A stretch of 64,000 nt of DNA from Candidatus Woesearchaeota archaeon. Lineage in GTDB: Archaea > Nanobdellota > Nanobdellia > Woesearchaeales > 0-14-0-80-44-23. The translations under genes and the position numbers were made by a program. Under the pieces are notes generated by a model. The model worked only from the letters and a program-made list of their open reading frames with translations. It ran no database searches and had not been told where the DNA came from. This document shows, one piece after another, positions 6,102 to 26,487 of this stretch. The stretch lies in NCBI GenBank assembly GCA_038874135.1, contig JAVZCZ010000001.1:751219-815218 (forward strand). The letters are read 5' to 3'. Each line of letters starts with the position of its first letter. Positions within the stretch are counted from its first letter, which is position 1.

Positions 6102-9100
6102 AAATCCTACCTTCAGGATACTGGAACGGGACAGGCAGCTGGAAAGGAGAAGACAGCAGCTGTACATCCTATTAGGCATCTTAGGAGTTTTACTAGCAGT
6201 TGGTGTTATACTTCTGATAAGAATGTTCATAGGATACGCAGTTCTGGAAAGCAGGGCTGGCACAATAACACAACTTAATATACAGCTCAGATACTCAACA
6301 CACATATGGGCTGGATTTTACGGATTGGCATTCCGCGTTCCCGGATACACTGAGCAGCAGTCTGCAGTTGCAGTCGGCGGCACAGTCTTCTTGCAGCACT
6401 TAGTATTTGACTGCTTAAAAACTACAGACGGCAACATTCCTGAGGTATATGCCAGTACTTCAAGAAACATTGACTGGAATTCACTCCAGCCAGCAACTCC
6501 AGACTTGATTGACAGCTACCTACAAGTAGATCCTTCAGATATAACCTCTGCTTCAAACACATTTACAGAAACAATGTCAATACTCTTAGGAGACAGAGAA
6601 ATCACAAATATTGCTGCAACGCACACCAAAAAGTTCGGAGTTCCGGACAGCACGGACTTTGATATAGGCTTCTTAAAAGATTCGTTGGGAAATCTCGTAT
6701 TTGTAACCCATGTAACTCCAACTTATACCAAAGGATTTAACAACCAAACTATAAACTACCAAATGCTCCTTCCAGTACAAGCAGGAACAGCTCCAGTATA
6801 CTACTTCTTCTCAGACCCATATGACGAGTGCCAAGCAGGGCTTGAAGCTCTCAAAAATGCTACCATATTCGGAAGAGCCATAGACAATGCAACAGGCCTT
6901 CCACTTGAAAATGTTACAGTTAATCTTCATACTGCTACAGTTCTTACCAACTCTACAGGAGACTATTACATAGCAATATTTAACGGCACCTACACCCTAG
7001 TAGCTTTCAAGCCGGGATATTACACCTTTGTTGCAACAAACATCACTCTCCCAGCTGACAATCTGTCTACACCTCAATCTGAAAATATTGTCGAATTTAA
7101 TATATCCCTCATTCCCAACCCTGGAAACCCAACTGGACTCGGAAACCTAACTGGCACTGTAACTGATAAAGACTTCGGAATACCCCTCTATAATGTAACA
7201 GTGTATGTAAACGGCAGAATCGCTAAGACAAACATTACAGGCCAATACCTACTTGAACTGCCAGCAGGAAATCATTCTCTTATAGCAATGAAGGAAAACT
7301 ACAGAACATACTACACTCCAAATGTAACTATACTGCCTGGAAACACCACTGAATTTAATTTCAGTATGGAATATGCAGAGCCAGAAATAAAAGAAACTCC
7401 TGGATATCCGCTAAATACCTTCGTTTCCAACCTACTCAAACAGGCAGTGCAGAGGCCTCAAATAATACTCACTCATAAGATTGATACAAAAGAGATATTT
7501 GAAACATTAAAAGTTGGCTCATATGTCCAGCGCTCATTCAATATAACGAGTTACAGGCCTGCCGAGTCCAAAGTTGAGTTTGAAGTCATAGGAAGTGCTG
7601 CACAGCTGGTAAAGGTTGACAAGAGCAGCTCAATAATACCTCCAAGGGGTGCAGAAAACTTCACCCTTACAATTCTAGCCAATGTGCCTCCAGGCATATA
7701 TACCGGAACATTCCTAATCAAAGGAGACCTTGAAGACAGAATCCCGATAAAGATAGTTGTTTATGAGAAGGATAGACTTCCAATAGAGGCTCTTCTCCTA
7801 GAAGTAGTGCCAATAAAAAAGATAATCAGCCCAGGAGAACTATTTGAATATAAGGTCAGCATGACAAACCTGCTGAGGGACACCCCATACAACATCACCC
7901 TTTCATACAATATCACCTCGCGCTCTTCAAATCTTACTATTCCCGTTGAAGAAGAGACGAGACTCTTGGAAACTCAGCTTTCCTACCTTAAGTATTACAA
8001 GCTTCCCAAAGACCTGCCAGAAGGAGAATACTTCCTTGAAACTAGAGCGGAATTCTTAGAACTATCAACAAACACAAAATCGCTATTCATAGTTAAGAAG
8101 CCAATTTACATGTATGCATTATTCGGAATACTTCCCCTCTGGCAGCTTTTCATAATAATAGTTTTCACCTCCCTCATGACCTTCGCAGGATTAATGTATC
8201 GGAAGCGTGTTTTGGCTTCTCGTCGTTATGGTGTGAGTGTGGATTTGCGTAGTTTTCCTTCTTCTGGTAGGCTTGTGCGTTTGGGTAAGTTGGCGGAGTA
8301 TGGGCGTGATTTTTGGTTTGATTTGGATGGTTTGACTACGCATTGTATTGTGGCTGGTGCTACTGGTGGTGGTAAGACTGTTGCTGCTCAGGTTTTGGTG
8401 GAGGAGGCTTTGAAGGCTGGTGTGGCTGTGGTTGTTTTTGATCCTACGGCTCAGTGGAGTGGTTTTTTGAGGCCTTGTTCTGATAAGGGTATGTTGTCTT
8501 TGTATTCGGGTTTTGGGTTGCGTCGTTCTGATGCTCGGGGTTTTCCGGGTAATGTGAGGCAGGTGTTGGATGCTCGTGAGGTTTTTGATGTTAGGCGTTT
8601 TATGCGTCCTGGTGAGATTGAGATTTTGAGTTTGAATAGGTTGAGGCCTGAGGAGATTGATGTTTTTGTGGCTAATACTGTTAGGAGCGTGTTTGATGCG
8701 GGTTTGGATGAGTGTCGTGAGTTGAGGTTGTTGTTGGTTTATGATGAGGTGCATAGGTTGTTGCCGCGTTTTGGCGGTTCTGGTGAGGGTTTTGTGCAGA
8801 TTGAGAGGGCTTGTCGTGAGTTTAGGAAGTGGGGTGTTGGTGTTGTTTTGATTAGTCAGGTTTTGTCTGATTTTGTTGGTGAGATTAAGGCTAATATTAA
8901 TACTGAGGTTCAGATGAGGACTCGTGATGAGGGCGATTTGGAGCGTATTCGTGTTAAGTATGGTGATGCTTATCTTAGGGGTCTTGTGAGGGCTAGTGTG
9001 GGTACTGGTATGTTTGAGAATCCCGGTTATAATGGTGGTCGTCCTTTTTTTGTTAGTTTTAGGCCTTTGTTGCATAGTGTGGTTCGTTTGTCTGATGCCG

Positions 9101-10457: not shown

Positions 10458-11615
10458 ATGTTCAACCTTTTCAAACGGAAAAACTCTGAAGAAGTTCCCA
10501 ATCAACAATCAGCTAACGAAGATCTGACAGCTCCAGCACAAACCCAGCAAACTGCTACTACGCAAGGACAGGAAAACCTCGCTGCAGAATTAATGAAGAT
10601 TAAGGCAGAAGTGGAAGCATTTTCAGATGTAAGAAAAGCCACAAATGAGAAACTTACAAGACTAAGCGAGCAGATTGGAGAGCTAAGAGCAATGATTGCA
10701 GACAGAGACAAGGTGATGAATCAGATAGAGGTTAAAGCTACAAAGGCAGCAGATCTCGTAGCCACAGTTAAGCCTGAAGAGCAGATGGTAGAAATAAAGC
10801 GTCAGGATGCAAAACTTGAAGCGTTTAAAGCATCTCTGGAGAGCAATGAACTTTTGATGAAGAGAGTTTTAGACGAACTTAAAGAGATGAGAACAAAGAT
10901 AGCTTCCTTCCGCGGAATTGAGGAACTAATCAACCTTAACAATGAAGTAAAATCTGAAATAATTGAAATAAAAAAGGTTGAAGCAAACATACAAAAGCAT
11001 GCAGACAAGGTAGAAACGATATTTGCAGAGGTTCAGAAAAGATTCGTTGACTTTACAAAAATTGATGATAGGATAGCATCCAACACGAAGCAAATAGCAG
11101 AGCTATCAAAGAACTTGGACGGAGTGAAGGCAACTGCCTCGGCAGCAGCCACAAAAAAGAGTGTAGATGAACTAACTTCCAAATTCTTAGAAATGAAAGA
11201 CCAACTCTCAGAACTGGTTTCAACAATAAACAAGCGCCTCTCCTTAGTGGAGAAGAACAATTCTGCAGCATTTGAAGCTTTTGAAAAAGCGATAATGCAC
11301 AAGTTTAAACTTTCAAAAGAGGAAGTAGCTGTATTTAAAGAGCAAGTACAGCAGAATCAGCAAGCCCAGCCAACTCAGCAAATATCCCAGCCGCAGGATG
11401 TCTCTCAAAAGAGCAATACTCAAGAGCAAAATCTTCAGACCAGTGAAGCACCCGAAGCTCTACCACAGCCGCAAGCCTCTCAGCAGGTTCAGCAGCCGCA
11501 GAGTGAGCCAAATGAGCAAGACTCAAAAAAGCCTGACAGCAGCATTCAGAAAGAGATAAGAGAAGCAGCCAAGTTTGCTAAAAGGATAAAAAGCAAAAAA
11601 AGAAAGAAGAAATGA
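10458..11615 (+). CDS. Coiled-coil protein with a Q-rich C-terminus
   Basis: 385 aa with a heptad-like E/K/L-rich central region and a Q/P-rich tail. It abuts the upstream stop. Confidence 0.45.
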   Translation: MFNLFKRKNSEEVPNQQSANEDLTAPAQTQQTATTQGQENLAAELMKIKAEVEAFSDVRKATNEKLTRLSEQIGELRAMIADRDKVMNQIEVKATKAADLVATVKPEEQMVEIKRQDAKLEAFKASLESNELLMKRVLDELKEMRTKIASFRGIEELINLNNEVKSEIIEIKKVEANIQKHADKVETIFAEVQKRFVDFTKIDDRIASNTKQIAELSKNLDGVKATASAAATKKSVDELTSKFLEMKDQLSELVSTINKRLSLVEKNNSAAFEAFEKAIMHKFKLSKEEVAVFKEQVQQNQQAQPTQQISQPQDVSQKSNTQEQNLQTSEAPEALPQPQASQQVQQPQSEPNEQDSKKPDSSIQKEIREAAKFAKRIKSKKRKKK

Positions 11616-14600
11616 ATAGCTCCAAATTTTTCAAACTAATAATTTTAGGGTTTATAATAGTGGTAGGTCTCCTAAGCCAGTCAAAAGCAGACAGCATCCA
11701 AGCAGTATATGGCAATACTCAACTCATACTCACAGACAAGCCGCAGTACACTTTGGGAGAAAGTGTAAAGATAAACATACTAATCCCAACACAACTGCTT
11801 TCAGGAATGAATGTTGAAATAGATACCCCTGCTAGCAGATACCAACTTCTTGATTCAAATCTTTCAGAAGTATACTTCACTCCACAGCAAGAGGGAAACT
11901 ATACTATTAAAATATCTTCAGCAGCTGGGAATTTAATATCATCAACTTCTTTTTTAGTACTAAGAAAATCTGAAGTTGAAATTCCCTCATCAGATAGCAC
12001 CAGCCCCAAATTGTCTGCAAAAAACTGGAAGGGAAATTATCAAAAAATACTAAGACAGGAATACCTACCTGCCAACAAGAAGCTTTCAATAGAATTCTCA
12101 GAACTTTCAATACAGAAGATTGATTTTTACAATGTTTCAAATCCGAATGGAGAACTGAAAATAGAAGATGTGCCTCTATCTTATGTTGAAAACTTTTCAG
12201 GAAGAGCAGCGCGCTCATTTGCAATAGACCCAACTTTATTAGAATTTACTTATGCTGAAATTTACTTTACTGCAACTGCCAACGAGCTGTGGAAGTGCCG
12301 CGAATACGACTTCTCAACTAGAAGCTGCGCGGGAAGATATGTAAAAATAATGGACACCATTCCGGGCAGGCAGTATATCTTACACCTCACCAAAGAGGAT
12401 CCTCTCTACACAGAAGTATGGAACAATATAACCTGCACCTGCCAGAATACAGGCCCAAATAACGGCTGGGCATACTGCGAGGTATTCTGTCCGGTCAACA
12501 TTCCAATACCAACAGACGCTTTAGATGGATTCATTCAGATACTAGGCTATAATGTCACCATCACTACATCCTACCCGGCAGGCGGGTACATCACGCCTAA
12601 TTCTGGAATGCACTACGGCTTCTTTGATAGGGACCAGCTGAAAAGCAACGGAAACGAATCCCTAATAGGCTATGTGGCTTATGATGGCCCCGGAACAACC
12701 ACTCAGCTCATATACAACACCAGCATGGCACCGTCTGGAGCATATGCATTTAACAGGGCAAACTGCCCGACTTGGACCTCAGGATACTGCACCTGGTATG
12801 TATTTCTCAACTCAACTGCAAAGAGCAGCAAGGTTAAAAGGCCTGTGACTGTTAATATAACTCTTAATAGCATAAACTGGACTTGGAATTATACAACCCC
12901 TGCGCCTTCAAACATTACAATAAACCTTACAAGTCCAGCAGACAATACTGCCCTCGGATTTAGAAATGTGAATTTTTCCTATATTCCCATTTCAAGTTCT
13001 CCAGTTTCAAACTGCAGCCTTTTTATAAACATTACAGGTAGTTGGAATGCAGTTGCCACAAGCTACTCAATACAAAATAATTCTGTCAACAGTATAAATT
13101 ATACTCTTTCTAACGATGGCGAATACCTCTGGAATATCAGGTGTTATGCTGGAGACATCAGCAGTTTTGCACTATACAACAGAACTCTAATAGTTGATAC
13201 CGCACCCCCTTCAGTCACACTTCTTTCTCCTAACAATAACTCATTTTCTAACACATCTATAATCTCTTTCATTTACAATGTGAGTGACAACTTTAACATT
13301 GCTAACTGCTCATTAATACTGGACAATGTTCTAGTTGCAACTTCATACGCAGTTACTAAATATGTCCCGCAGAATATTACCTACGCGTTATCTAATGGCG
13401 TCCACAACTGGAGCATAACTTGTTTTGACTTTGCAGGCAATTTTAACATTTCCGAAAGTAGGATCATAAATATATCCGCAGTACCTACCATCTGGGACAG
13501 AAGGTGGTATGAAACTTCAACATCAGATTATACCTCTACAGCAAACATTTCTCTCGCAAATTTAAGGGACTCAACAGAAAATTCCATATCCGTTTCAGTT
13601 CCAGTTTCAACATCTTACACCCTTGTAGATGCGATTTCTCCATACATTGGAAGCAACGGGGCATTCGTTCCCAAAGGCACAAATGTATCTTTCAGCGGAG
13701 AATTCTCTACCAGCCCAAATGCAAAGGGAGTTATAAGCTGGTTCTTATACCAGACTGAGGGTTCAACAAAAAACCTTCTCTGTAATTACGGAAATGGCGG
13801 CTCGCTAGGCGCACCCATCTCATCAACAACAACTGCAAGCTGCACTATACAAAATGACACTCTAATGCTCCCAACAAATAGATTACAACTTATTATAATC
13901 TACTATAACAATTTCAAAAATTTAGTGTCTGTAACCCACTATTGGGATGGCACTAGGCTCTCGTTCGTTGAATTTTCAAACTTTACTACCTTAGGAACAT
14001 TAAGCGTTGACCTCTCCTATCCAGACACGGATATAACAGTGGGCCAGAACGAACTGTTCAATATGAGCTGCACAGTTAACTGCTCAGGAGGAAGCTGTCT
14101 TAACACACTCGTCTATGCACAGTATAACACGAGCTCAACGGCATTCACCAACATAGGAAGCTCCGGAAATCTCATTCTTAACACTGGAGAGACAAATCCC
14201 CATTCTCTCGGGAATATCAACCAGAGCTACACTACAACATTCTTAATAAAAGGAAACCTTGCATCAACAAACAACATAAGATGCGTAGCAGTTTCAAACT
14301 ATTCAAACGCTACAGGCCAGATTATAAGAAGGGTAGTTGTGGGGGACACTACGCCTCCAACAGTAAGTCTTGGAAATCCAGCAAACTTTTCTTGGCTGAA
14401 GAGTAAAACAGTAACAATCTATTACACGCCCTCAGACAACAGCGGAATTACTAACTGTTCAATATACTTGAATGATATTTTGAATTATACTCTTAATTCA
14501 GTTCCGAACGGGATTGAGCAGAACTTCACATTCCATAATCTTTCAGACGGACTTTACAATTGGACTGTAGCATGTACTGACAATTCGGCACTAACTACCA

Positions 14601-17600
14601 GGGCAGCTGAAAAATGGTTCTATATAGACACACAGAATCCCTCAGTAGAATTGCACCAGCCGGAAAACTTCATAGTTCTAGGAAGCAGCCTTGTGTTGTT
14701 CAACTTCACTGCATATGACGAAATGGCTTTCAACCTATCATGTAACCTGACAGCTGATAATATAATCAGAATTTCCGGCATAAACTCTCTAAACAGTACA
14801 CCTACAATAGTTAATTACACCCTTTCTATGGGGCAGCACTACTGGAATGTCACCTGTAGAGACCTTGCAGGAAACATTAACACGAGCGAGACTAGAACAT
14901 TTAATATAACAAACACTCCTCCTGAAGTTACCCTCATCTCCCCTCCTAACAACTACTGGGATAGAATAGGCAACATAACATTCATATTTAATGCCACAGA
15001 CACAGGCCTAATTTCAAACTGCTCACTAATAATAAATGGCCAGCTGAACCAGACTAAAAATTCAACTTTCTTAACTAACGGCATAAACAACTTTACTATT
15101 CTAAATATGGAATCGGGAGTTTATCTTTGGGAAGTAAACTGTACTGATGAGGGAAACCTGAGCACAATAGCAGGACCTTTCACGCTAAATGTTGATAAGA
15201 GCGTACCTTCTGTTCAGCTCGTATTCCCATCAAACTACTACAACTCCTCAGCTTCCTCTATTGTTCTGCAATTCATAACTACAGATGCTCATTCAGCAAA
15301 CCTCTCCTGCAACTTAACAATTGATGGCATTCTAAATTCAACAGACATAATAGCCCAAAATAATAGTTTAGTCTCACAGCCCATAACCTTCTATGATGGA
15401 ATTCACAATTGGAGTGTCTCCTGCTCTGATCTTGCTGGAAACCTGAATTCTACAAACACCTGGTATTTCAACATTTCAGAAAAACCTTCAGTATCGCTAA
15501 GCAGTCCTGCACCTAACGCCTGGACTAATGGTAATGTCACTTTCACATTTACAGCGTCTGACAATGACGGGCTTTACAACTGCTCTTTATTAATAAATGG
15601 AGCAGTCTATCAAACAAAGAATTCATCGCAACTTACAAATGGCGGACAGAACAACTTCACTGTAACAAATTTGCTTGAAGGAATAAACCAGCAGTGGACA
15701 GTAATCTGCTTTGATTTGGGAATATACAAGAACTTCTACTCACCATCTACAAGAATATTCCATGTGGATAAAACGCCTCCAGCAATAACTCTTAACTACC
15801 CTGCTGATTCAGCTCAGATAAAACAGAAGAATGTCAGCTTTAATTTCAGCGCCTCAGATAACTTCGCTTCTAACCTCTATTGCAACCTGTCCATAAACGG
15901 CCAGATTAACACTTCTGAAATAGCTGTTCAGTCAGGAAGTTCAGTTATCGTGAATGTTTCAGGATTTCCTAACGGTTTATACTACTGGAATGTCTCCTGT
16001 AGGGATTATGCTTACAATGTGAACTGGAGCGAGACAAATTCTTTTAATGTTTCAGTTCCTCCAGAGGTGTTTTTAGAATACCCCCTTGAAGGGCAGTGGG
16101 ACAATTCTGAGAATGTAACATTTTATTACTTAGTAACATCAAATGCAGAGTTACAGTCATGTTCTCTCATAATTAACGGGCAGTTAAATCAGACTGACAA
16201 TTCTCCAGTTAGTTCAGCATACAACAATTTTACCATTTTCCTAATGCCTGAAGGCTATTACACTTGGATGGTAAACTGCACTGATTCATATTGGCTAACC
16301 GGTTCTTCAAATTTGAGGAACCTCACCATTGACAGACAAGCTCCTTGGATAGTGCTAAATTCTCCTTCTAATTCTTCAATTGTTGACTCTAACTATGTAA
16401 CATTTAACTGGACTGCTTTTGACATGATGGCAGATAATATAAGCTGTGACCTATACGTAGATGATTATTTAAGAGAATCAGAAATATATTCTAAAAATGG
16501 AACACCTACCACTAGAACATACATATACTCTGACGGCACCTACTATTGGAATGTTTCATGTCGCGACCCTGCCTATAACATTAATTGGAGCCAAACTTAT
16601 AATTTCACTGTTGAGGCACCTCCAAATGTCACTCTCATAAGTCCTTCTAACTATAACTGGAGCACCGCTTATAGTATAACTTTTGCTTACTTACCTCAAG
16701 ACCCAATAGGGATAAGACAATGCACACTCTACTTTGATGGAAGCCCTAATCAGACTGATTACGACATAGAAGCTAACCAGCTGAATTATTTCACTATAAA
16801 TCCTATAAGTGAGGGAGTTCATACTTGGAGTGTTAACTGCACTGATTCAGATTGGAATACTTACATGCCGCCAGCCTTTACTCTTTATATTGACCGCACC
16901 CCGCCAACAATTGTTATAGAATCTCCTGTCAACCTGTCTGTTTTTTCAATTCCAGATGTAACCTTCAACTTTACTGCGATTGACATGTTATCAGATAATA
17001 TTTCGTGCAAAATAACTATAAATGGTAATTTGAACAGAACTATAACAGTACAGAATGATACTCCTTACAATTTCACGATTGTAAAAATGTCAGATAATAT
17101 CTATTATTGGAATGTGTCCTGCTCAGATTTAGCCGGAAATGCAAATGCTAGCAACACCATGCAGTTTACTGTAAGCGCTATTCCTTCAATAATTCCCATA
17201 TCGCCTGCCAACTTAAGTTGGAGTGAAGTATCACAGATAACATTTTACTTTAATGCAACCGACAACGATGGGCTTTCTAATTGCACTTTACTAATTAATG
17301 GTGTAGCAAATCAGACAAAATCTTCAGGTTTAATAAATGGTGGCATAAACAATATCACTTCTACTCTTACTGAAGGAGAATATGATTGGAGTATCGCTTG
17401 TACAGATTCGGGCATATTCTATAATCTCAACTTGTCCGCTCCTCAAAAGATTTTTGTTGATCTAAATTCCCCGCTGATTGTTCTTTACGCCCCTCTCAGC
17501 GGTAGCATTACTGAAAATAATTCTCCAGTTCTAAATTTTACTGCTTCAGACACGATGTACCCAATTATGTATTGCAACATTACTCTTGACGGAAAATTGA

Positions 17601-18652
17601 AACAATCTTATATTGAATTATATAACAACACACCTTATGCAGAAGCTACCTATAATTTATCTGCAGGAACTCATTACTGGAATGTTAGCTGCTGGGACTA
17701 TGTAAACCATACGGGCTTTAGCGAAACCTGGAACTTTACAGTTCCACTGCCAGACATCACAGTTTCAGCAATTGAATTCATTTATAATACCACAAACCCA
17801 GAAGAAGGCAAACAGCTGATGATAAATGCAACTGTAGAAAATTTAGGGAAGTCCAATGCAAACAATTTCTTAGTGCAATTCTTTGACGGAAATCCCGAAG
17901 ATGGGGGAATTCAGATTGGAAACAATATAACAATGAGTTTACAGCCGCTATCTGCTTCATACGCAATTATGAATTGGACTGCCTCCTTGGGAACTCACAA
18001 TATATTCGTGCTAGTAGATCCTCCAATAGCAACCAATGGAACGGTACAAGAAGAAAATGAGAGTAACAACATAGCTAATAAAACAATACTCATACAAAGT
18101 TGGCATTTCATCTACGGTAACCTTAGCGGAGAATTAGGACTTAGCAGCCAGCTCTATTCGCTGTTATTCCTCTGGAATGTTAGCGACGCCAACAATAGTA
18201 ATATATTTGCAGTTGACTCTGACAGCAATATTGATTGGGGAAGTCTAAAACCATTAGGATTGGATGTGAATAATCAAGCATCTCCCTACGACTTTTCAGT
18301 TCTAGACCAAAAACTAGGTATGTCAAATTATGAAGATTCAATAAACTCAACTTACACCGAGGGAGAATCTCCCAAAATGACAGAAACATTTACAATATAC
18401 GGAAAGCAGATAGAAAATGTTCCGGTAGCATATTCAATTAACAGCTCCAATTTTAAAACAGGAATACTGTGGGACACTTCCGATGGGAACACATACTTTA
18501 ACGGAACTCAGGATGTAGTTTTTGTAACTAAAACCAATATGAACGCACAGGGCAGTTTTGATCAGACAGACTACGAAATGCGCATCCCATCTAACTTGAA
18601 AAATTATATTGGCTCAAATCCAACAGTAGCATTATACTTAGAGATAAGATGA
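11612..18652 (+). CDS. Giant secreted adhesin-like protein with ~19 tandem Ig-like repeats, a CARDB domain and a conserved C-terminal module
   Basis: 2346 aa with an N-terminal signal peptide. The repeated ~95-aa units carry NCSL...W(N)V.C.D.AGN. A CARDB-like block follows (ITVSAIEF...NESNN). The last ~180 aa are homologous to the C-terminus of the 18649 protein. Confidence 0.75.
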   Translation: MNSSKFFKLIILGFIIVVGLLSQSKADSIQAVYGNTQLILTDKPQYTLGESVKINILIPTQLLSGMNVEIDTPASRYQLLDSNLSEVYFTPQQEGNYTIKISSAAGNLISSTSFLVLRKSEVEIPSSDSTSPKLSAKNWKGNYQKILRQEYLPANKKLSIEFSELSIQKIDFYNVSNPNGELKIEDVPLSYVENFSGRAARSFAIDPTLLEFTYAEIYFTATANELWKCREYDFSTRSCAGRYVKIMDTIPGRQYILHLTKEDPLYTEVWNNITCTCQNTGPNNGWAYCEVFCPVNIPIPTDALDGFIQILGYNVTITTSYPAGGYITPNSGMHYGFFDRDQLKSNGNESLIGYVAYDGPGTTTQLIYNTSMAPSGAYAFNRANCPTWTSGYCTWYVFLNSTAKSSKVKRPVTVNITLNSINWTWNYTTPAPSNITINLTSPADNTALGFRNVNFSYIPISSSPVSNCSLFINITGSWNAVATSYSIQNNSVNSINYTLSNDGEYLWNIRCYAGDISSFALYNRTLIVDTAPPSVTLLSPNNNSFSNTSIISFIYNVSDNFNIANCSLILDNVLVATSYAVTKYVPQNITYALSNGVHNWSITCFDFAGNFNISESRIINISAVPTIWDRRWYETSTSDYTSTANISLANLRDSTENSISVSVPVSTSYTLVDAISPYIGSNGAFVPKGTNVSFSGEFSTSPNAKGVISWFLYQTEGSTKNLLCNYGNGGSLGAPISSTTTASCTIQNDTLMLPTNRLQLIIIYYNNFKNLVSVTHYWDGTRLSFVEFSNFTTLGTLSVDLSYPDTDITVGQNELFNMSCTVNCSGGSCLNTLVYAQYNTSSTAFTNIGSSGNLILNTGETNPHSLGNINQSYTTTFLIKGNLASTNNIRCVAVSNYSNATGQIIRRVVVGDTTPPTVSLGNPANFSWLKSKTVTIYYTPSDNSGITNCSIYLNDILNYTLNSVPNGIEQNFTFHNLSDGLYNWTVACTDNSALTTRAAEKWFYIDTQNPSVELHQPENFIVLGSSLVLFNFTAYDEMAFNLSCNLTADNIIRISGINSLNSTPTIVNYTLSMGQHYWNVTCRDLAGNINTSETRTFNITNTPPEVTLISPPNNYWDRIGNITFIFNATDTGLISNCSLIINGQLNQTKNSTFLTNGINNFTILNMESGVYLWEVNCTDEGNLSTIAGPFTLNVDKSVPSVQLVFPSNYYNSSASSIVLQFITTDAHSANLSCNLTIDGILNSTDIIAQNNSLVSQPITFYDGIHNWSVSCSDLAGNLNSTNTWYFNISEKPSVSLSSPAPNAWTNGNVTFTFTASDNDGLYNCSLLINGAVYQTKNSSQLTNGGQNNFTVTNLLEGINQQWTVICFDLGIYKNFYSPSTRIFHVDKTPPAITLNYPADSAQIKQKNVSFNFSASDNFASNLYCNLSINGQINTSEIAVQSGSSVIVNVSGFPNGLYYWNVSCRDYAYNVNWSETNSFNVSVPPEVFLEYPLEGQWDNSENVTFYYLVTSNAELQSCSLIINGQLNQTDNSPVSSAYNNFTIFLMPEGYYTWMVNCTDSYWLTGSSNLRNLTIDRQAPWIVLNSPSNSSIVDSNYVTFNWTAFDMMADNISCDLYVDDYLRESEIYSKNGTPTTRTYIYSDGTYYWNVSCRDPAYNINWSQTYNFTVEAPPNVTLISPSNYNWSTAYSITFAYLPQDPIGIRQCTLYFDGSPNQTDYDIEANQLNYFTINPISEGVHTWSVNCTDSDWNTYMPPAFTLYIDRTPPTIVIESPVNLSVFSIPDVTFNFTAIDMLSDNISCKITINGNLNRTITVQNDTPYNFTIVKMSDNIYYWNVSCSDLAGNANASNTMQFTVSAIPSIIPISPANLSWSEVSQITFYFNATDNDGLSNCTLLINGVANQTKSSGLINGGINNITSTLTEGEYDWSIACTDSGIFYNLNLSAPQKIFVDLNSPLIVLYAPLSGSITENNSPVLNFTASDTMYPIMYCNITLDGKLKQSYIELYNNTPYAEATYNLSAGTHYWNVSCWDYVNHTGFSETWNFTVPLPDITVSAIEFIYNTTNPEEGKQLMINATVENLGKSNANNFLVQFFDGNPEDGGIQIGNNITMSLQPLSASYAIMNWTASLGTHNIFVLVDPPIATNGTVQEENESNNIANKTILIQSWHFIYGNLSGELGLSSQLYSLLFLWNVSDANNSNIFAVDSDSNIDWGSLKPLGLDVNNQASPYDFSVLDQKLGMSNYEDSINSTYTEGESPKMTETFTIYGKQIENVPVAYSINSSNFKTGILWDTSDGNTYFNGTQDVVFVTKTNMNAQGSFDQTDYEMRIPSNLKNYIGSNPTVALYLEIR

Positions 18653-21600
18653 AACGCAGCATAACTTTTGGAATAATTTTTCTACTTTTAATAGCATTAT
18701 CTCTAAAAATTTCCAGTGCGAGCTGTCCGGAAATAATACTTTCATCCAACACCACTATAAAAGATGTAGATATAAAAATAAAAGTTTCAGGGCAGACACA
18801 AGAGTCAGAATTAGTGATAAGAACGCCTTCAGGTCCGTATCGTCTTTTAGGAGATATTCCTTCCCTTACAAGCTTTACTCCAAAAGATGTAGGTAACTAC
18901 TCTGTTGAAGTTTGGCAGGACAAAGTGCTGTGTGACATAAAAAATTTTACCGCACTACCTCACAATAACTCGACACTATTCCTTCCGCCAATACTTTCCA
19001 CAGATAAAAAAGAATACCACTTAGGTGAAGCTGTTAGAATTTCACTCTCACCAGAATATTACGGTTACTCAATTGAAGGTTTAAATTTAAAACTGTTGAC
19101 AGGACAGCAATCCTACTCTCTCTTAGGGGAAATATCTGAGGATATAGAATTCCGACCTGTTTTTGAGGGTAACTATACAATTCTCTTATTAGACTCCATT
19201 GGAAATACTCTTGCTTCTGAAAGCTTTTCCGTCTACGCTTTGAATAGTTACTTTGTTAATAACTTATCTATTAAAAAACGATTTTCGGACAAATTTGAAT
19301 ACAACATCAGCACTAATTCAGAAGACATGATTGTTGAATTCTCAAACTCCTTCATTAAAAGACTAAACCTAAAGAAACTATCTTCAAGTAATCTGGCGAT
19401 AGTTAGGATTTCAGAGTTACTGCCGGAAGAGAGGAGCCGTCTGAATATTCCTACAATTGGAGGTGAAATTAAAGAATCTTTTGAATTAGATCCTTCCGCC
19501 CTAAACTTTTCAGAAGGTGAACTAACAATTGTCCCTTCAGGAAATGAGCTGTGGAAGTGCACTGATTGGAATTATGATGCTCAGTATTGTGTCGGAAGTT
19601 GGATCAAGCAGCAGAATCTTGTTCCCGGTGTTGAAAATGTAATTAAGTTTAACCTTTCCGATCCAGGATATGCTATTGTTGCAACTGCTAACATAACTTC
19701 AATAGCAGCAGCAACCCTCTCTGAAAACTCTTTTGTAGTAGCATATTGCGATGATACAAATGATAGAACTGCTTTCAAGGTTTTCTGGGCTAATGGGAGT
19801 GTAAGAACTAATGAGGTGATAGTTGATTCAACTACTGGAAATTGTGGTTACACCTCAGTTTCTGTTTCAGCACTTACCAACAACTCTTTTGTTATCGGAT
19901 GGATTGATACTGCCAGCAGTTATGCCAGCTTCGCTGTTTATGATGCCTCTGGAAATGTTATTACTCCAAGGGTGGATGTGGATACTACTGCTGGTACTTC
20001 CCGTTCTGTGAGTGTGTCTGCTTTTAATAGTTCTGCTTTTGTTTTTGGTTGGTATGATCAGGCTTCTGCTTATGCTTCTTTTAGGACTTTTAGTTCTTCT
20101 GGTGTGGCTATTTCTTCTGTTGTTAATGTGGATACTACTGCTGGTACTTGTAATGCTGTTTCTGTTTCTGCGGTTAATTCTTCTGCTTTTGTTTTTGGCT
20201 GGTATGATCAGGCTTCTTCTGATATGACTTTTCGTACTTATACTTCTTCTGGCGTTGCGATTTCTGCCGTGACTGATGTGAATACTAAGGTGGGTACTGG
20301 TTCTTTTTCTGTTTCTGTTGCTGCTTATAATTCTAGTGCTTTTGTTATTGTTTGGTATGATCAGAGGCTGGGTTATGTTAGTTTTCGTCAGTATTCTGTT
20401 GCTGGTGTTCAGATTGGGAGTCAGGTTAATCCGGATACTGCTGTTGGGACTACTGCTTCTGGTGTTTTTGTTTCTTCTGTTGGTGTGAATTCTAGTGTTT
20501 TTGCTGTGGGTTGGAATGATTTGACTACTGATGTTGTTAGTTCTGTGAGGACTTATAGTGGTGCTGGTGCTGCTGTTTCTTCTGAGGTGGTTGTGCAGGC
20601 TAATGCTTTGAAGTATAATGCTCTTGCCGGCTACTACCCTGCTACAGGCATAGGTTTCTGCAATGGAAACTTTGTAGCAATAATTGTTAATACTTCTTCG
20701 CAGGCATTTTTTAAAGCATACATGCCTAATGGAAGCGAATGGGACGGAAACTGTCCTGATGTTATACCGCCTCAAGTTGTTCTGAATAGTCCTCAGCAAG
20801 CCGCTGTCTTCTATAGTGATACTGTGGATTTTAATTTTACAGTAACCGACAATGTAGATTTAGTAATTCCAAACTGTACCCTTTGGATAAACACTTCATC
20901 AACATTCTCTCCAAACATAACAATTTACAATATAACCTCTAATAAGATGAACAACATAACTCTATCTCAAATTCCAGACAACAAATACATTTGGAATGTC
21001 AGGTGTTATGACAATGCAGGCAACTCAGCATTTGCTTCTTCAAATTTTTCATTATTTATCAACAAGAATCCACCTCAAATCTTGAACCCCCTCCTGAATG
21101 AAAGTACAGTAAATCAGAGCCATTCAGTAAAGTTTAATGTCTCAATAACCGATTCATATGGTATAGACTCTGCATATATAACTATGATGTACCCAAACGG
21201 TTCATCAAATAATTATTATCTTAATAGAAGTGGGAATGAATTTTACTTCATAATTAATAATACAATCCAGATAGGAACATATTCTGTGATATATGTGTGG
21301 GCTAATGATACCCTCGGACAAAACTCTTCTCTAACCCTTTCAGATCTCCAGTTTAATGTCACGCCTTCACCACCTGCTCAATTCAACCTTTTAAGTCCCC
21401 CGAATGCAACAGAGTCAACAAACCTGCGACCAAACTTGACTTGGGAGACATCTTACGATGAGACATTCCTTAATTATACTATTCAGATTTCTCAGGATGA
21501 AAACTTCGCAACAGTACTCTTTACATATTATAATCCGGGTGTTTATAATACTTCAAGAGTGCTGGATTATGCCCTAGAAGCGAATAAGAAATATTACTGG

Positions 21601-24600
21601 CAAGTTATTGCATACGACACCTTTGGCAATTATAAATATTCAACAAATTACTTCTCATACATAACTGACACTTTGGCACCTTCCATCGTGCTAAATATGC
21701 CGGGAAATCTTTCATTCATAAATTCTACACAAGTCAACTTTACATTTACACCTTCAGATGCTAACACGATATCAAGATGTACTCTCTACCTAAATGTCAC
21801 AGGAGCATTCCTCCCTAACACAAGTATAACTCAAGTTGTTAAAGACACTCCAAATTTAATACAAGCTGAAATTAAAGATGAGGGCGCCCACTTGTGGAAT
21901 ATCCTGTGTAATGATAGCGCAGGAAATTCTGCGTTTGCTCCTCAGAACTTCACCTTTATTTCAGATCTTAACCCGCCCTCAATACAACTATTAAGTCCTC
22001 CCAACGGCAGTACATACAACATTTCCAATTTTGTAAATTTCACTATAAATGCATCTGATAGGATATCCGCAGTATACCGCTGCACACTCATAATAAATGG
22101 ACAGCCCGTTCTTACTTCTTATTCTGTGCAGGACGGAGTGCCATACACATTTCAGTATTTCTTGCTGAATGGAAATTACTCCTGGCAGGCAGAATGTTAC
22201 GACTTAAACGGTCATTCAAACCTTTCTTATTCCTACAACATTTCAGTTTTAGTTATTGATTCAGTACCTCCAATCGTAACCTTAACTAGCCCCGCACAGG
22301 ACCAATACCTTTCCAGTAAAACAGTACTATTCAATTATACTCCGCAAGACGCTACTGGAATAAAGAACTGCACCCTATTTATTGATGGCAATGAAAACGA
22401 AACTGACTTTTCTGTTAGGAACTTGGAACCAAACTACTTCTTATTAGAATACTTAGAGGACGGGGTTCATAACTGGACTGTGCTCTGCTTTGACAATAGC
22501 AGCCAGCAGAACAGCTACGCACCCACCCCTGTAAGGTTCTCAATAGATACAACTCCGCCATCAGTAATTCTTATCTCTCCAGAAGATGGAGTTCTTACTA
22601 ATAATTCTCTAGTCACCTTTGTATACGCACCATCAGATGCAAATCTTGAAAATTGCTCCCTCTACACTAATTCTTCTAGCGAGTGGATGATGGAATCAAC
22701 AGACTTCTACCCAATTAATAATCAGCAGAATGTTTTTCAAAAATCAGTTGCGGATGGAGTTCTCGTTTGGAATGTTGTTTGTTATGATAAGGGCGGGCTC
22801 TCCAGCTTTGCTGACTTTAACCGAACATTGAATGTTGATACAACTCCGCCGCGATACGCCAATATAACTCTGATCCCGACAAGCCCAACTGAATATTCAC
22901 CTTATGGGGAGTATTACTTTAATATAACATGGATTGATGATTTTAATTTGTCATCTGTATATTTTGAGAGCAACTTTTCAGGAACCTTTGAGAATGAGAG
23001 TCCCAACCACTTTGAAAACATTTACTATGTTCACAAGACAGGTCTTAACTCAGGAACATACCAGATTAGGTGGTACGCTACTGATTCGGCAAAAAATCAG
23101 AACGAAACCCCGGCAATTCAGTATGATATAACTAAAGCAGAGCCTAACCTTACTTTAAAAATAAACAATTATTCTTATAATTTGACTGTTGAGGAAGATA
23201 GCATAGTTAATATCTCAGCAGAGCTCTTAGAGCCACCCGGAGCATACCTCTCTATTTATATTAACAATAATCTCATTACTAACGGAACTTCTCCTATTTA
23301 TACTACTTACAACTTTACAGAGCCTGGATCTTATAATGTTACTGCGAGCTTTGAAGGAAGCCAAAACTACCTTTCAGCATTCAGAACAATAATTGTAAAT
23401 GTCTCAGACACTACACCCCCAATTATAGTTCCCATCTTCCCGCAGAATAACTCATTCATAGGGGAAAATCACATTGTATTTTCTTACAATGTAACTGACA
23501 GCAGCCAAATTGCCAACTGTTCTTTATTCATAAATAGAACATTAAACCAGAGCAATACCAGCATACAGAATGGAATAAACTACTTTGAAGTTGACTTTCA
23601 AGATGGCAACTACTCCTGGCACCTCTCCTGTTATGACGAGTTTTCAAACTATGCTGAAAGCCCGGAGATATACTTCACTTCAATAAGGTCAGATAAAATA
23701 ATTGCTTCAGCACATCCTCAACAGCCGCAGTACCAAAAGGGTGAAACGGCAATACTTATAGGAAATACTACGAGCATCTTCGGAACACCATTAGATACAA
23801 ATATTTATGCTAATGTAATAAGAGGCAATACTACGATAGAATGGTGGAACACTTCATTCAAATACAGAAGGCCTATATTTATAAATAACTCAATGAACGC
23901 TTCAACATACTTGCAGGCGCTAATCAACATTTCAAACCTTAGCGCTTCAATTTCTAACTGTTCTGAACTCAGAATTGTAATGAACAACTCTTTTGAGCAC
24001 ACCCTAATCCCCTCAGAAGTACTCTTAGAAGAGGGAAATGCTTCGTGCCTGCTAAGATTTAATGCGAATGCTTCTGCACTCGCCACGAATGAGAACAACT
24101 ACTATGTATATTACGGAAACTCAGGAGCAGGAGCCCAGCAGCAGCTTCCAGAACTTGCAGGCATATCAGTACAGCGTAAGTCTGTTGTGGGAACTACAAC
24201 TTCAATCACTGATACGATGAGTGAGGTGAATACTTCAAGAGCGTTCCTGCTTTTCAGCGCCAATGTCGCCAGCTCAACTCCTGCAGTTTGGGAAATAACG
24301 GGAAGAATATTATCCTCAACGCAGGTAGTGTTTGAAAGATACTCGGGAACCACATCTGCAAATATATCCTGGCAGGTTATAGAAGGCTCAGAGATTAATG
24401 TGCAGAGGGGAACCGCATCATTTGGAGCTACACAATCAAATACTACAATACTTATAGATAGTGTTAATCTAAACGAGTCTTTCATAATAATAACCGGAAG
24501 GACCAGCAGCACCACAGCAGGGAATGCAAACATGGGCTTCTTTAGGGCAATGTTCCTTAACTCTACTGCAATTTATATTGAAAGGGCTACAACTGGAAGC

Positions 24601-26487
24601 ACTGCTGTTGCAGAATGGCAGGTAGTTTCGTGGAGTGGTGCGAGAGTGCAGAGTGGAAACATCTCTTTCATAACAGCTTCGCAGAGCGTCCCCATAGAAG
24701 AGGTTAATCTTTCCAGGAGCATGCTGATATTCAGCACTGCTGTAACTGGCAACACCAGGATAGGAGCTAACATGATTTTTGGCAACTTTACCAATTCCAC
24801 AACAGCATACTTCTCAAGAACGAATGCTGCAGGAACAGCATATGTTTCCTGGTTTGCAGTTGAGCTTCCCCAATACTACTCAGTACAAGCCGGAACAGTT
24901 TCAATCACAGCAGATACCAATGTTCAAATATACCCCGTGCGCACTGAGAAGACATTTCATCTGCACTCAGCTTCAGCAGTAGGAGCAACCAGCACTACCT
25001 ACTCTGATGCCCTAATAAGAGCCGAGCTAACAAATAGCTCAAATCTTATGCTGGATAAGGTGTCTGGCACAAATACCAACTATGTTGCCTGGTTTGTAGT
25101 AGAAGAAAAATATCTTTCAGCTAATTCGGGAATGGAAGAAGCTTTAATGGCATACAACTACAACTCCACATTGACAGGGCTTTACACTCTAAGTTGGGTT
25201 TCCGGAAAGAGCCCGGTGGGCAACTACACCTTTGTATACTCTGCAACAAAAACTAATTACTCATCTGCAAGGGCATACTCCACATTTGAGATAATTCCAG
25301 ACACAACTCCGCCCAATGTTACGCTTGTAAGCCCACTTCAACTTGAAAAGAGGGGCGTCGGAAATATAATCTTTTCCTACATACCTTATGACTTGAACCT
25401 TCTAAACTGCACACTCTACCTTGGAAAGGACGGAACTTTTTCTCCGAACATTACGAGCACGAGTCCAATAAATAATGCAGTAAACAATCTTTCAGTATAC
25501 TTAGACATCGGATTATACACTTGGAATGTGCTTTGTAGGGACAGTGAAGGAAACTCTGCATTTGCTCTGCAGAACAGGACACTTAACATAACAGGCCCAG
25601 ACCTATACCCTGTTGCTGTTTGGTTTAGCAACACGCCCAGGATTGAGACCGTTAACACAACCATCTTTGTTAACATTTCTAATAAGGGGCTTTCTGATTG
25701 TACTAAAAACTTCACTGTTGAGTTCAGGAGAAGTGGGCTGCTCATAGGCAATCTGAGTGTGCAGGGGCTGCTGATTGGCGAAGTTAAAAGCTTGAACTCT
25801 TCATTCCTGTTAGGTCCCGGCATTAATAATTTAAGTATTAGCATAGATCCTGATAACAGGATTAACGAGTCGGACGAGTCAAACAACAATGCTTATGAGG
25901 TTATTGCTGTTGAGTTTTATCAGTACTATTACGGAAATCTTAGCTTTTTACAGGTTTTGAGCAAGTCCTCAAACGAGTCTGTATTCACTTGGGAAAATTC
26001 AAATCCTGAAGATGGGGTTATTTTAGTTGCTGATATTGATTCAAAATTTGAGATTGGAAACTTAAGAGCCCTGACTCGGAATGCAAATGGGGATCCAGTT
26101 ATAAATGATCTTTCAGAATTGGATGAGGCTTTTAATTCTTCAAATCTTAACGATTCTATTAAGAATGTGTGGGGAAACGGCACTGACATTCCAATAATGA
26201 CTGCCAACTTTACGATAGGACAGTTTAATATTTCTAACGTTCCGGTAGCATATTCCAGAAATTCCACTTCTTCAATTACGGGAATACTCTGGGACTCTGC
26301 AGATGATTTAAGCCACAACCTTCAGTATGACAGCTCTGATAGGGAAGATATAGTTCTAATCACAAAGATTCACCCGTTAGCAGACTGTTCTTTTGGTAGC
26401 TGCAATTATGAGATAAGAATTCCAGCAGCTCTACGCTCTTACAAGCCTAACACCGACCTCGTAGTTTTTTACACCATGCTAAACTGA
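18649..26487 (+). CDS. Giant secreted adhesin-like protein with beta-propeller-like blades, Ig-like repeats, a CARDB domain and a conserved C-terminal module
   Basis: 2612 aa with a signal peptide. The ATGA overlap with the upstream gene suggests translational coupling. Blade repeats resemble SVSVSAFNSSAFVFGWYDQAS. Many NC[ST]L...C.D..GN domains are followed by CARDB and the shared C-terminal module. Confidence 0.75.
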   Translation: MKRSITFGIIFLLLIALSLKISSASCPEIILSSNTTIKDVDIKIKVSGQTQESELVIRTPSGPYRLLGDIPSLTSFTPKDVGNYSVEVWQDKVLCDIKNFTALPHNNSTLFLPPILSTDKKEYHLGEAVRISLSPEYYGYSIEGLNLKLLTGQQSYSLLGEISEDIEFRPVFEGNYTILLLDSIGNTLASESFSVYALNSYFVNNLSIKKRFSDKFEYNISTNSEDMIVEFSNSFIKRLNLKKLSSSNLAIVRISELLPEERSRLNIPTIGGEIKESFELDPSALNFSEGELTIVPSGNELWKCTDWNYDAQYCVGSWIKQQNLVPGVENVIKFNLSDPGYAIVATANITSIAAATLSENSFVVAYCDDTNDRTAFKVFWANGSVRTNEVIVDSTTGNCGYTSVSVSALTNNSFVIGWIDTASSYASFAVYDASGNVITPRVDVDTTAGTSRSVSVSAFNSSAFVFGWYDQASAYASFRTFSSSGVAISSVVNVDTTAGTCNAVSVSAVNSSAFVFGWYDQASSDMTFRTYTSSGVAISAVTDVNTKVGTGSFSVSVAAYNSSAFVIVWYDQRLGYVSFRQYSVAGVQIGSQVNPDTAVGTTASGVFVSSVGVNSSVFAVGWNDLTTDVVSSVRTYSGAGAAVSSEVVVQANALKYNALAGYYPATGIGFCNGNFVAIIVNTSSQAFFKAYMPNGSEWDGNCPDVIPPQVVLNSPQQAAVFYSDTVDFNFTVTDNVDLVIPNCTLWINTSSTFSPNITIYNITSNKMNNITLSQIPDNKYIWNVRCYDNAGNSAFASSNFSLFINKNPPQILNPLLNESTVNQSHSVKFNVSITDSYGIDSAYITMMYPNGSSNNYYLNRSGNEFYFIINNTIQIGTYSVIYVWANDTLGQNSSLTLSDLQFNVTPSPPAQFNLLSPPNATESTNLRPNLTWETSYDETFLNYTIQISQDENFATVLFTYYNPGVYNTSRVLDYALEANKKYYWQVIAYDTFGNYKYSTNYFSYITDTLAPSIVLNMPGNLSFINSTQVNFTFTPSDANTISRCTLYLNVTGAFLPNTSITQVVKDTPNLIQAEIKDEGAHLWNILCNDSAGNSAFAPQNFTFISDLNPPSIQLLSPPNGSTYNISNFVNFTINASDRISAVYRCTLIINGQPVLTSYSVQDGVPYTFQYFLLNGNYSWQAECYDLNGHSNLSYSYNISVLVIDSVPPIVTLTSPAQDQYLSSKTVLFNYTPQDATGIKNCTLFIDGNENETDFSVRNLEPNYFLLEYLEDGVHNWTVLCFDNSSQQNSYAPTPVRFSIDTTPPSVILISPEDGVLTNNSLVTFVYAPSDANLENCSLYTNSSSEWMMESTDFYPINNQQNVFQKSVADGVLVWNVVCYDKGGLSSFADFNRTLNVDTTPPRYANITLIPTSPTEYSPYGEYYFNITWIDDFNLSSVYFESNFSGTFENESPNHFENIYYVHKTGLNSGTYQIRWYATDSAKNQNETPAIQYDITKAEPNLTLKINNYSYNLTVEEDSIVNISAELLEPPGAYLSIYINNNLITNGTSPIYTTYNFTEPGSYNVTASFEGSQNYLSAFRTIIVNVSDTTPPIIVPIFPQNNSFIGENHIVFSYNVTDSSQIANCSLFINRTLNQSNTSIQNGINYFEVDFQDGNYSWHLSCYDEFSNYAESPEIYFTSIRSDKIIASAHPQQPQYQKGETAILIGNTTSIFGTPLDTNIYANVIRGNTTIEWWNTSFKYRRPIFINNSMNASTYLQALINISNLSASISNCSELRIVMNNSFEHTLIPSEVLLEEGNASCLLRFNANASALATNENNYYVYYGNSGAGAQQQLPELAGISVQRKSVVGTTTSITDTMSEVNTSRAFLLFSANVASSTPAVWEITGRILSSTQVVFERYSGTTSANISWQVIEGSEINVQRGTASFGATQSNTTILIDSVNLNESFIIITGRTSSTTAGNANMGFFRAMFLNSTAIYIERATTGSTAVAEWQVVSWSGARVQSGNISFITASQSVPIEEVNLSRSMLIFSTAVTGNTRIGANMIFGNFTNSTTAYFSRTNAAGTAYVSWFAVELPQYYSVQAGTVSITADTNVQIYPVRTEKTFHLHSASAVGATSTTYSDALIRAELTNSSNLMLDKVSGTNTNYVAWFVVEEKYLSANSGMEEALMAYNYNSTLTGLYTLSWVSGKSPVGNYTFVYSATKTNYSSARAYSTFEIIPDTTPPNVTLVSPLQLEKRGVGNIIFSYIPYDLNLLNCTLYLGKDGTFSPNITSTSPINNAVNNLSVYLDIGLYTWNVLCRDSEGNSAFALQNRTLNITGPDLYPVAVWFSNTPRIETVNTTIFVNISNKGLSDCTKNFTVEFRRSGLLIGNLSVQGLLIGEVKSLNSSFLLGPGINNLSISIDPDNRINESDESNNNAYEVIAVEFYQYYYGNLSFLQVLSKSSNESVFTWENSNPEDGVILVADIDSKFEIGNLRALTRNANGDPVINDLSELDEAFNSSNLNDSIKNVWGNGTDIPIMTANFTIGQFNISNVPVAYSRNSTSSITGILWDSADDLSHNLQYDSSDREDIVLITKIHPLADCSFGSCNYEIRIPAALRSYKPNTDLVVFYTMLN
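19969..20624. repeat. Copy 1 of an exact 656-bp GT-rich cassette encoding propeller-blade repeats
   Basis: Nucleotide-identical to 30550-31205. The composition is anomalous. Flanking sequence is homologous but diverged. Confidence 0.9.

Follow-up and report, generated by a model that had tools for sequence, protein, structure and literature searches.

Two adjacent genes of a Candidatus Woesearchaeota archaeon (GenBank assembly GCA_038874135.1) encode giant secreted proteins, P1 and P2, built around copies of a ~95-amino-acid (aa) immunoglobulin (Ig)-like unit that carries a pair of cysteines. The genes lie in a stretch of 64,000 nucleotides (contig JAVZCZ010000001.1, positions 751,219 to 815,218 of the forward strand; hereafter the window), in which a NOG1-type GTPase, topoisomerase I, an AMP-phosphorylase-like protein, aIF5B, KsgA, and ribosomal protein L10e are archaeal markers; the source organism is tiny and probably symbiotic. 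By itself, the repeat is an ordinary object: profile comparisons place it as a divergent archaeal branch, found in Woesearchaeota and other DPANN lineages, of the known Big_13/Big_7 class of bacterial Ig domains. The whole is probably best explained as a disulfide-stapled, glycan-coated Ig stalk of Sec-exported surface proteins, which would project head domains and be anchored by a C-terminal domain (CTD). The CTD, together with a conserved gene cluster around a HerA-like membrane ATPase, is a more novel lead than the repeat.

The repeat unit and its place in the Big_13/Big_7 class

A hidden Markov model (HMM) seeded with 10 units of P1 only recovered 14 units in P1 (two, followed further downstream by a contiguous block of twelve), seven in P2 (independent E-values, i-E, of 1e-14 to 8e-23), and three in the 5'-partial open reading frame (ORF) 1-3222 (i-E 4e-9, 7e-5, and 3e-8). 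Upon iteration, the model converged on these 24 units (i-E 4e-15 to 4e-31), and the matches across the three proteins are far above chance. The alignment of the 24 units (A1) has P8, C34, and C74 in every sequence and at least 90% conservation at G66, W70, and D76. The motifs NC[ST]L..NG, W.V.C.D.AGN, and F.FTA.D, quoted in the initial annotation of this DNA, are recovered in the alignments as the true consensus of the unit, and the two giant ORFs exist as described there. Its repeat counts fared unequally: the ~19 repeats given for P1 are reduced to 14, while the ~8 given for P2 were a fair estimate, corresponding to seven canonical units and three degenerate, Cys-less relatives recognized by the family HMM. 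Instead of the at least five carriers listed, there are three solid ones (P1, P2, and ORF 1-3222 with its three units) and a weak one, ORF 35335-37869 on the reverse strand (whole-protein E 1.4e-10), whose two degenerate units keep the Cys pair. The fifth, ORF 30160-32418, was ruled out as a carrier, as neither the seed HMM (best i-E 0.061, aa 397-499) nor the family HMM (no match below 0.5) gave a significant hit.

Matches to two known families are evident at the level of whole proteins: Pfam reports Big_7 (PF17957) at 83.0 bits and Big_13 (PF19077) at 82.7 bits in P1, and at 42.5 and 36.7 bits, respectively, in P2. The consensus of the whole family (2265 units) matches Big_13 with 44.7 bits against a gathering threshold of 27 (E 2.1e-11, profile positions 19-102 of 102); in the Pfam scan of this consensus Big_13 was the top match, and Big_7 was not among the matches. 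Individual units, on the other hand, mostly score weakly or below threshold. None of nine tested units reaches 27 bits with Big_13 (13-20 bits), and three of the nine pass the Big_7 threshold of 24.1 bits (26.4, 26.7, and 27.3; another reaches 22.4, and the rest are lower or absent). At E<0.01, 5/24 units match Big_13 and 10/24 match Big_7, i.e., most units, taken one by one, escape the existing Pfam models. The homologues of the giant proteins already bear precomputed PF19077, PF17957, and PF07705 labels, flagged 'faint' or 'weak'.

The other candidate families were rejected. For the family consensus, PKD-type and fn3 models remain sub-threshold (K319L-like_PKD 24.8 vs. 27 bits, PKD_4 15.8 bits, fn3 14 bits), and neither He_PIG nor cadherin is listed at E<=1. 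The comparison with PKD, Big, He_PIG, and cadherin-like families that the initial annotation had proposed thus leaves Big_13 as the family above threshold for the consensus, and its suggestion of a new, lineage-specific family is not borne out. The confident match to an existing Pfam family that it had named as refuting novelty is obtained at the family level, single units being mostly weak matches.

The unit has the Ig-like β-sandwich fold. A profile search of the PDB gave a full-length match to 9kvu_A, and a match to SiiE (PDB ID: 2yn3) at the DG.Y....D.AGN...VD stretch; the latter is an example structure for Big_13 (PMC9704523). An AlphaFold2 (AF2) model of the unit at 14921-15205 has a predicted local distance difference test score (pLDDT) of 95.8.

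Architecture of the giant proteins and readings of the array

From the N- to the C-terminus, P1 is composed of a signal peptide, a head region, two units, a ~290-aa insert, twelve units, a CARDB domain, and the CTD. Its paralog P2 comprises a signal peptide, an Ig-like head, a region of ~50-aa repeats, Ig units among other domains, CARDB, and the CTD (Table 1). The CARDB domain occurs once per giant protein and is distinct from the repeat unit. Based on their giant size, signal peptides, and richness in NxS/T sequons, P1 and P2 are predicted to be surface proteins. Their exact or near-exact counterparts at NCBI are named 'MAG: CARDB domain-containing protein [Candidatus Woesearchaeota archaeon]', a further copy of the giant ORFs is present in GCA_038871545.1 (JAVZHW010000001.1), and NCBIfam has no match for either protein.

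The P1 and P2 ORFs overlap by 4 nt, and so do the ATG of P1 at 11612 and the stop codon of the gene upstream of it. In the NCBI model, P1 has 2330 aa and begins 16 codons further downstream (11660), cutting into the hydrophobic signal segment; 11612 looks like the better start, because of the 4-nt overlap and the complete signal peptide that it yields. The ~50-aa-repeat region of P2 shares 815 nt at 94.5% identity (656 nt exact) with ORF 30160-32418 (19842-20652 vs. 30423-31233). The shared segment is a run of repeats with a 150-nt period, which has a propeller-blade look and no Pfam match; this segment, and not the Ig unit, accounts for the resemblance of that ORF to P2.

The range of the family was assessed by an exhaustive profile search of cluster representatives, in which 27,324 representatives matched at E<=1e-3, 10,537 at E<=1e-10, and 1,790 at E<=1e-30; composition, Cys-state, and architecture counts cover the best 150 of the 27,324 matches. 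For the unit alignments A1 and A2, word-indexed searches were uninformative, each yielding a single fragment; the full-length P1 query worked. The named members are mostly Ca. Woesearchaeota, Pacearchaeota, Nanoarchaeia, or 'archaeon', with the exceptions of one 'Bacteroidota', one 'bacterium', and two partial members labelled Ca. Micrarchaeia (at least 90% identity), and the off-lineage labels may reflect binning. Confinement of the domain to the island or to a single lineage, as had been supposed, does not agree with this distribution. The source names of the members are 'CARDB domain-containing', 'Ig-like domain-containing', 'DUF2341 domain-containing', or 'hypothetical'.

The architectures of these homologues bear on the possibility that P1 and P2 are structural envelope proteins, in which the Ig array and CARDB would build a lattice or sheath of an S-layer or canopy, and nearby coiled-coil and transmembrane (TM) proteins would act as SlaB-like stalks. 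The best-matching proteins are giants that reach 7719 aa and contain as many as 39 matched stretches, their heads are swapped (Laminin_G_3, DUF2341, MG2, the 3-keto-disaccharide-hydrolase-like 3keto-disac_hyd, or subtilase), and several paralogs are encoded per locus. Such a pattern points to variable adhesins rather than to one or two lattice proteins, and the weak hits that could be invoked for an envelope are far below significance. An envelope role is therefore unlikely.

The two cysteines behave as a pair, as the initial annotation had assumed. The top 150 proteins yield 1545 full-length units, of which 1343 contain both cysteines, 191 neither, and 11 a single one. The Cys-less units carry Ser, Ala, or Ile at one position and Val or Ala at the other, and 9kvu, the closest solved relative, has Val and Ala at the two positions; both observations fit Cys columns that face the core as neighbors. 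In the family alignment, columns 34-73 rank first by mutual information, and a coupling ladder (32-74, 35-72, and 39-67) fits antiparallel pairing of predicted strand 4 (31-38) with strand 7 (66-76). The cysteines are located on these two strands and none on strand 3 (19-26). The total number of cysteines is even in both P1 and P2.

A canonical inter-sheet disulfide between strands B and F, as in V/I/C-set Ig domains, was ruled out by the position of the cysteines on strands 4 and 7, which pair by covariation. Judged from the predicted strands, the pair looks like an intra-sheet staple of the C-F type, provided that strands 4 and 7 correspond to C and F of an Fn3-like topology, from which the naming is borrowed. 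A Cys pair of this intra-sheet C-F kind occurs in domain 2 of CD4.

The pair is most likely a disulfide, with an inferred S-S geometry. Alternatively, in the surface protein of an anaerobe, the two residues could be free thiols in the core, or a pair that responds to redox state or metals: many Woesearchaeota live in anoxic habitats, and no thiol oxidase turned up among the window ORFs scanned. The both-or-none pattern and the small hydrophobic replacements are, however, what is expected of a buried disulfide, the top covarying columns are on predicted neighbor strands, and two cysteines alone seldom form a metal site. A pair other than a disulfide is thus quite unlikely.

The sequon density of P1 and P2 (Table 1) compares with ~0.5 per 100 aa in cytoplasmic ORFs. 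A unit contains on average 6.3 sequons in the window and 7.4 family-wide, and conserved sequons flank both cysteines (N-C-[ST] and N-V-[ST]-C), suggesting that the units are N-glycosylated. This coat is relevant to the idea that the units themselves bind ligands, i.e., that the rod provides multivalent weak glycan binding instead of serving as a passive spacer. BIg domains of SiiE have been proposed to sum weak interactions with host glycans (PMC5466336), the units fall in the same Pfam family at the consensus level, and no separate lectin domain is found in P1 or P2 by Pfam. On the other hand, the ~6-7 predicted N-glycans per unit would mask most of its surface, the conserved residues (Trp, Cys, Asp, and Gly) belong to the core and loops with no obvious surface patch, and homologues have dedicated LamG-type heads. 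Ligand binding by the units is accordingly very unlikely.

In the 12-unit block of P1, two subtypes alternate, one with NC[ST]L.ING and the other with N[LI]SC.L..DG, and the identity at lags 1-6 is 25/39/25/37/26/40%. The same periodicity is found family-wide (28.5% at lag 1 vs. 36.0% at lag 2), with lag 2 exceeding lag 1 by more than 5 points in 81 of the 121 proteins with runs of at least 6 units. Since the alternation has a period of two, an A-B pair is the building block of the array.

Comparison of orthologues shows that the P1 array is old and fixed in number. Its units are mutually 25-49% identical, and five orthologues or close relatives (57-100% identity, including all the orthologues at 57-69%) have exactly 14 two-Cys units each. 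A related-locus search with P1 as query led to one orthologous locus, PEXD01000056.1 of Ca. Woesearchaeota archaeon CG07_land (L001), whose giant protein is 59% identical to P1. There, 12 of the 14 units find their best match at the same position (mean identity of 57% on the diagonal and 30% off it). At the DNA level, units resemble each other at best over 68 nt with 60-72% identity, and there are no long repeats among them. The massive expansion remarked on in the initial annotation is not a recent event, in view of the low unit identity, the positional orthology, and the 14 units found throughout. Recent tandem amplification, or a periscope-type mechanism, was ruled out by the ~25% identity of neighbors, the lack of DNA repeats, and the constant number of units. 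A new adhesion family unrelated to Pfam and recently expanded in the island is, therefore, highly improbable: most single units fall below the Pfam thresholds, NCBIfam has no match, and the precomputed labels are faint, but the whole-protein and consensus scores, the 27,324 matches, the low unit identity, and the fixed number of units all argue against it.

The C-terminal domain and its conserved gene cluster

Of the top 150 family members, 88 carry the CTD (~190 aa), and 87 of these 88 have it at the very C-terminus; it has no Pfam match and no fold match in the PDB. Its profile is related to that of small secreted proteins (hhalign probability 98.5%, E 3e-15), which are encoded at 27454-28224 and 28495-29187 and as paralogs in other loci. 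The N-terminal ectodomain of a membrane ATPase (ORF 6094-9636) is related to both the small proteins (98.7%, E 1.6e-16) and the CTD (96.9%, E 1.5e-10). This ATPase has TM segments at aa 24-42 and 673-691 and a DUF87/HerA P-loop domain, for which HerA (PDB ID: 4d2i) is the best PDB match (E 1e-7), with weak matches to DUF87, HerA_C, FtsK, and TraD-type models. The CTDs end with a hydrophobic -Y-x-E-[LI]-x terminus and the small proteins with Y-Y-[FL]-Y-V-E-L-x.

The genes form a cluster that is conserved in distant DPANN loci (L001, L003, L004, and L005), whose giant proteins are 34-59% identical to P1. Shared are a PKD/Ig membrane protein, the ectodomain-bearing DUF87/HerA-like membrane ATPase, a basic protein, a coiled-coil protein, the giant Ig-array protein(s), 2-4 small CTD-like proteins, a secreted Cys-containing protein of ~305-330 aa, and a 9-TM protein. 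In the window, the conserved island extends over 1-41187 (Table 1). A literature search of limited extent found no description of the Ig subfamily or of the gene cluster, which may be described elsewhere.

The shared module raises the possibility, which we put forward tentatively, that the giant proteins, the small proteins, and the ATPase ectodomain belong to a single conserved, undescribed surface apparatus of DPANN archaea. The CTD-like modules might co-assemble into a filament or dock resting on the ATPase, with the giants as adhesive tips.

Several further observations concern the cluster. Two ATPase genes (3183-5564 and 6094-9636) share a 1164-nt segment at 99.8% identity (4021-5183 vs. 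8201-9363), which spans the ATPase domain; their ectodomains differ. A contig of another assembly (L002) begins inside this repeat, at ~9227 of the window. The guanine-cytosine (GC) skew, unlike in the rest of the window, is strongly positive at 4001-6000 (+0.45) and 8001-10000 (+0.38), over the duplicated segments. The duplication represents either gene conversion or an assembly problem.

A short cytoplasmic module (weakly DUF5752-like, with the motif NFERND.A.W.R) is shared by the 164-aa ORF 26656-27150 and the C-terminal ~70-aa tail of ORF 35335-37869 (reverse strand). The ATPase homologues of L003 and L005 carry it in their C-terminal tails as well, and it may be a docking motif. A secreted, sequon- and Cys-rich family of ~300 aa is represented by ORF 29195-30112 and the C-terminal ~300 aa of ORF 30160-32418; it has no Pfam or NCBIfam match and is conserved in L003, L004, and L005 (31-33% identity), where it also lies downstream of the genes for the giants. 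In L004 and L005, the cluster is interrupted or flanked by genes for ParA, MarR, HEPN/MNT, and ParE-type toxins and a recombinase-like gene, and adjoins a ribosomal protein operon, a possible sign that the region is variable or was once mobile.

Table 1. Coordinates of P1, P2, and neighboring features in the window (ORF 1-3222 also encodes PKD and CarboxypepD_reg domains and a TM segment at aa 836-854)
Feature	Coordinates	Strand	Basis
P1, giant secreted protein, 2346 aa	11612..18652	+	ORF; 132 NxS/T sequons (5.6 per 100 aa), 42 Cys
P1 signal peptide or signal anchor, hydrophobic aa 6-24	11612..11692	+	hydropathy scan
P1 Cys-pair Ig units 1-2 (aa 435-626)	12914..13489	+	HMM i-E 8e-23, 2e-28 after iteration
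P1 contiguous 12-unit Cys-pair Ig array (aa 916-2049)	14357..17758	+	HMM i-E 1e-25 to 4e-31
P1 CARDB (aa 2047-2156)	17750..18079	+	Pfam PF07705, 35.7 bits vs. cut-off 22.7
P1 CTD (aa 2157-2346), terminus ...YLEIR	18080..18649	+	
P2, giant secreted P1 paralog, 2612 aa	18649..26487	+	ORF; 128 sequons (4.9 per 100 aa), 28 Cys
P2 Cys-pair Ig unit (aa 708-809)	20770..21075	+	seed and family HMM
P2 two degenerate Cys-less unit relatives (aa 810-907, 911-1009)	21076..21675	+	family HMM i-E 0.017, 9e-7
P2 four consecutive Cys-pair Ig units (aa 1011-1401)	21679..22851	+	seed and family HMM
P2 degenerate Cys-less unit relative (aa 1405-1498)	22861..23142	+	family HMM i-E 8e-5
P2 Cys-pair Ig unit (aa 1591-1683)	23419..23697	+	seed and family HMM
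P2 Cys-pair Ig unit (aa 2222-2318), adjoining CARDB on its N-terminal side	25312..25602	+	seed and family HMM
P2 CARDB (aa 2317-2415)	25597..25893	+	Pfam PF07705, 40.3 bits vs. gathering threshold 22.7
P2 CTD (aa 2416-2612)	25894..26484	+	CTD HMM E 2e-65; 36% identity to P1 CTD
Two Cys-pair Ig units of the 5'-partial type-I membrane protein ORF 1-3222 (aa 31-219)	91..657	+	seed and family HMM
Third Cys-pair Ig unit of ORF 1-3222 (aa 463-559)	1387..1677	+	seed and family HMM
Two degenerate Cys-pair units (aa 29-118, 127-204) of ORF 35335-37869, type-I membrane protein, TM aa 665-683	37258..37785	-	family HMM i-E 3-4e-4
Small secreted CTD homologue, 256 aa	27454..28224	+	CTD HMM E 4.5e-8; Sec-type signal peptide
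Second small secreted CTD homologue, 230 aa	28495..29187	+	
CTD-like ectodomain (aa ~45-250) of ORF 6094-9636, membrane HerA-like ATPase	6226..6843	+	hhalign
Coiled-coil protein, 385 aa, directly upstream of P1	10458..11615	+	38-55% identity to L001, L003, L004, L005 equivalents

The proposed stalk, its known counterparts, and its meaning

In the preferred explanation, the 14 units of P1 and the seven canonical and three degenerate units of P2 would form a long, stable, glycan-coated stalk, in which each module would be stapled by a disulfide of its Cys pair and the glycans would shield the rod. The low identity of neighboring units might limit misfolding between domains, an idea that goes back to studies of eukaryotic repeat proteins such as titin. 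Asp is conserved at the ends of the domains (D27, 87%; D75, 96%; D91, 61%), and these residues may create interdomain Ca2+ sites like those of SiiE, which would make the rod stiffer; the Asp residues of 'DAAGN' and 'IDS' in SiiE align with D75 and D91. The type-I interdomain Ca2+ site of SiiE is built from three Asp residues, one from the C-terminal end of the preceding domain and two from loops (PMC5466336). The stalk would act as a spacer, holding the head domains tens of nanometers off the cell for contact with a host cell, another cell, or a surface. The CTD would tether the giant protein to the cell by pairing with its own homologues, i.e., the small secreted paralogs and the ectodomain of the HerA-like ATPase.

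Some points weigh against this explanation. In the hydropathy scan, the C-terminus of P1 and P2 shows no membrane anchor, nor does it have a known sorting signal, and Pfam detects no binding domain in their heads, only Ig-type domains and CARDB; the adhesin role is plausible by analogy. The covariation of the Cys columns may be inflated by the two subtypes and the relatedness of units. Many Woesearchaeota inhabit anoxic water, where extracellular disulfides are not guaranteed. Finally, the explanation does not account for a HerA-type ATPase beside proteins with Sec signals.

Among known systems, the giant Salmonella adhesin SiiE is similar in its ~95-aa Ig-like sandwich of the Big_13 family (PDB ID: 2yn3), its long tandem arrays, and the giant size of the surface protein. 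The motif DG.Y....D.AGN...VD is shared as well, with Asp conserved at two of the three type-I Ca2+-site positions. SiiE is, however, a type-1-secretion substrate of a Gram-negative bacterium, whereas P1 and P2 are archaeal and Sec-exported. The archaeal units also differ from it in their Cys pair (the aligned SiiE stretch has no Cys at the second position), in ~7 sequons per unit, in the two alternating subtypes, and in single units that stay under the Pfam cut-off. The 'bacterial immunoglobulin domain B1' of CelAly, a Big_7 domain (PDB ID: 9kvu), lacks the Cys pair, as described above. Big_7 domains are typically found in glycoside hydrolases, one or a few at a time, as opposed to the arrays of 12-35 units considered here. 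The Fn3-like (X1) modules of Clostridium thermocellum CbhA (PDB ID: 3pdd and 3pdg), at only 13-14% identity, have no Cys pair and are part of a cellulase instead of a giant repeat protein.

Periscope proteins likewise project a functional head on a stalk of tandem Ig-type domains, and Big_13 is among their repeat folds (PMC9704523). Their repeats are highly identical in DNA and strain-variable in number, in contrast to the ~25% neighbor identity and the fixed 14 units of P1. In the VARTIG module of Thermococcales, the authors proposed that the Cys pair of the Ig domain forms a disulfide (PMC8416519). Like P1 and P2, the VARTIG proteins are large, archaeal, and secreted, and combine E-set Ig domains and CARDB with a Cys pair conserved in an Ig domain; they differ in lineage, domain family, and gene neighborhood, and have neither the long alternating array nor the CTD. 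The principle of stapling every stalk domain also has a counterpart in a giant adhesin of Mobiluncus mulieris, which is reported to contain many Ig-like repeats, each internally cross-linked, disulfides included (PMC10619420). This adhesin is bacterial and also has ester, isopeptide, and thioester cross-links; the likeness considered here is one of principle.

How DPANN archaea attach to and exchange material with other cells is largely unknown, and their genomes are rich in huge unannotated surface proteins. For the giants described here, a readable architecture is gained, consisting of a head, an alternating array of stapled Ig units, CARDB, and a C-terminal module. As the current Pfam models catch a minority of the units, a dedicated unit profile would be useful and would improve the annotation of thousands of metagenomic proteins. 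With the gene cluster and its module of unknown fold, there are now concrete starting points for predicting the structures of complexes and for proteomics and cryo-electron tomography in DPANN co-cultures. If the tentative apparatus exists, attachment to host cells would be tied to an ATP-driven translocase for the exchange of DNA or protein between symbiont and host.

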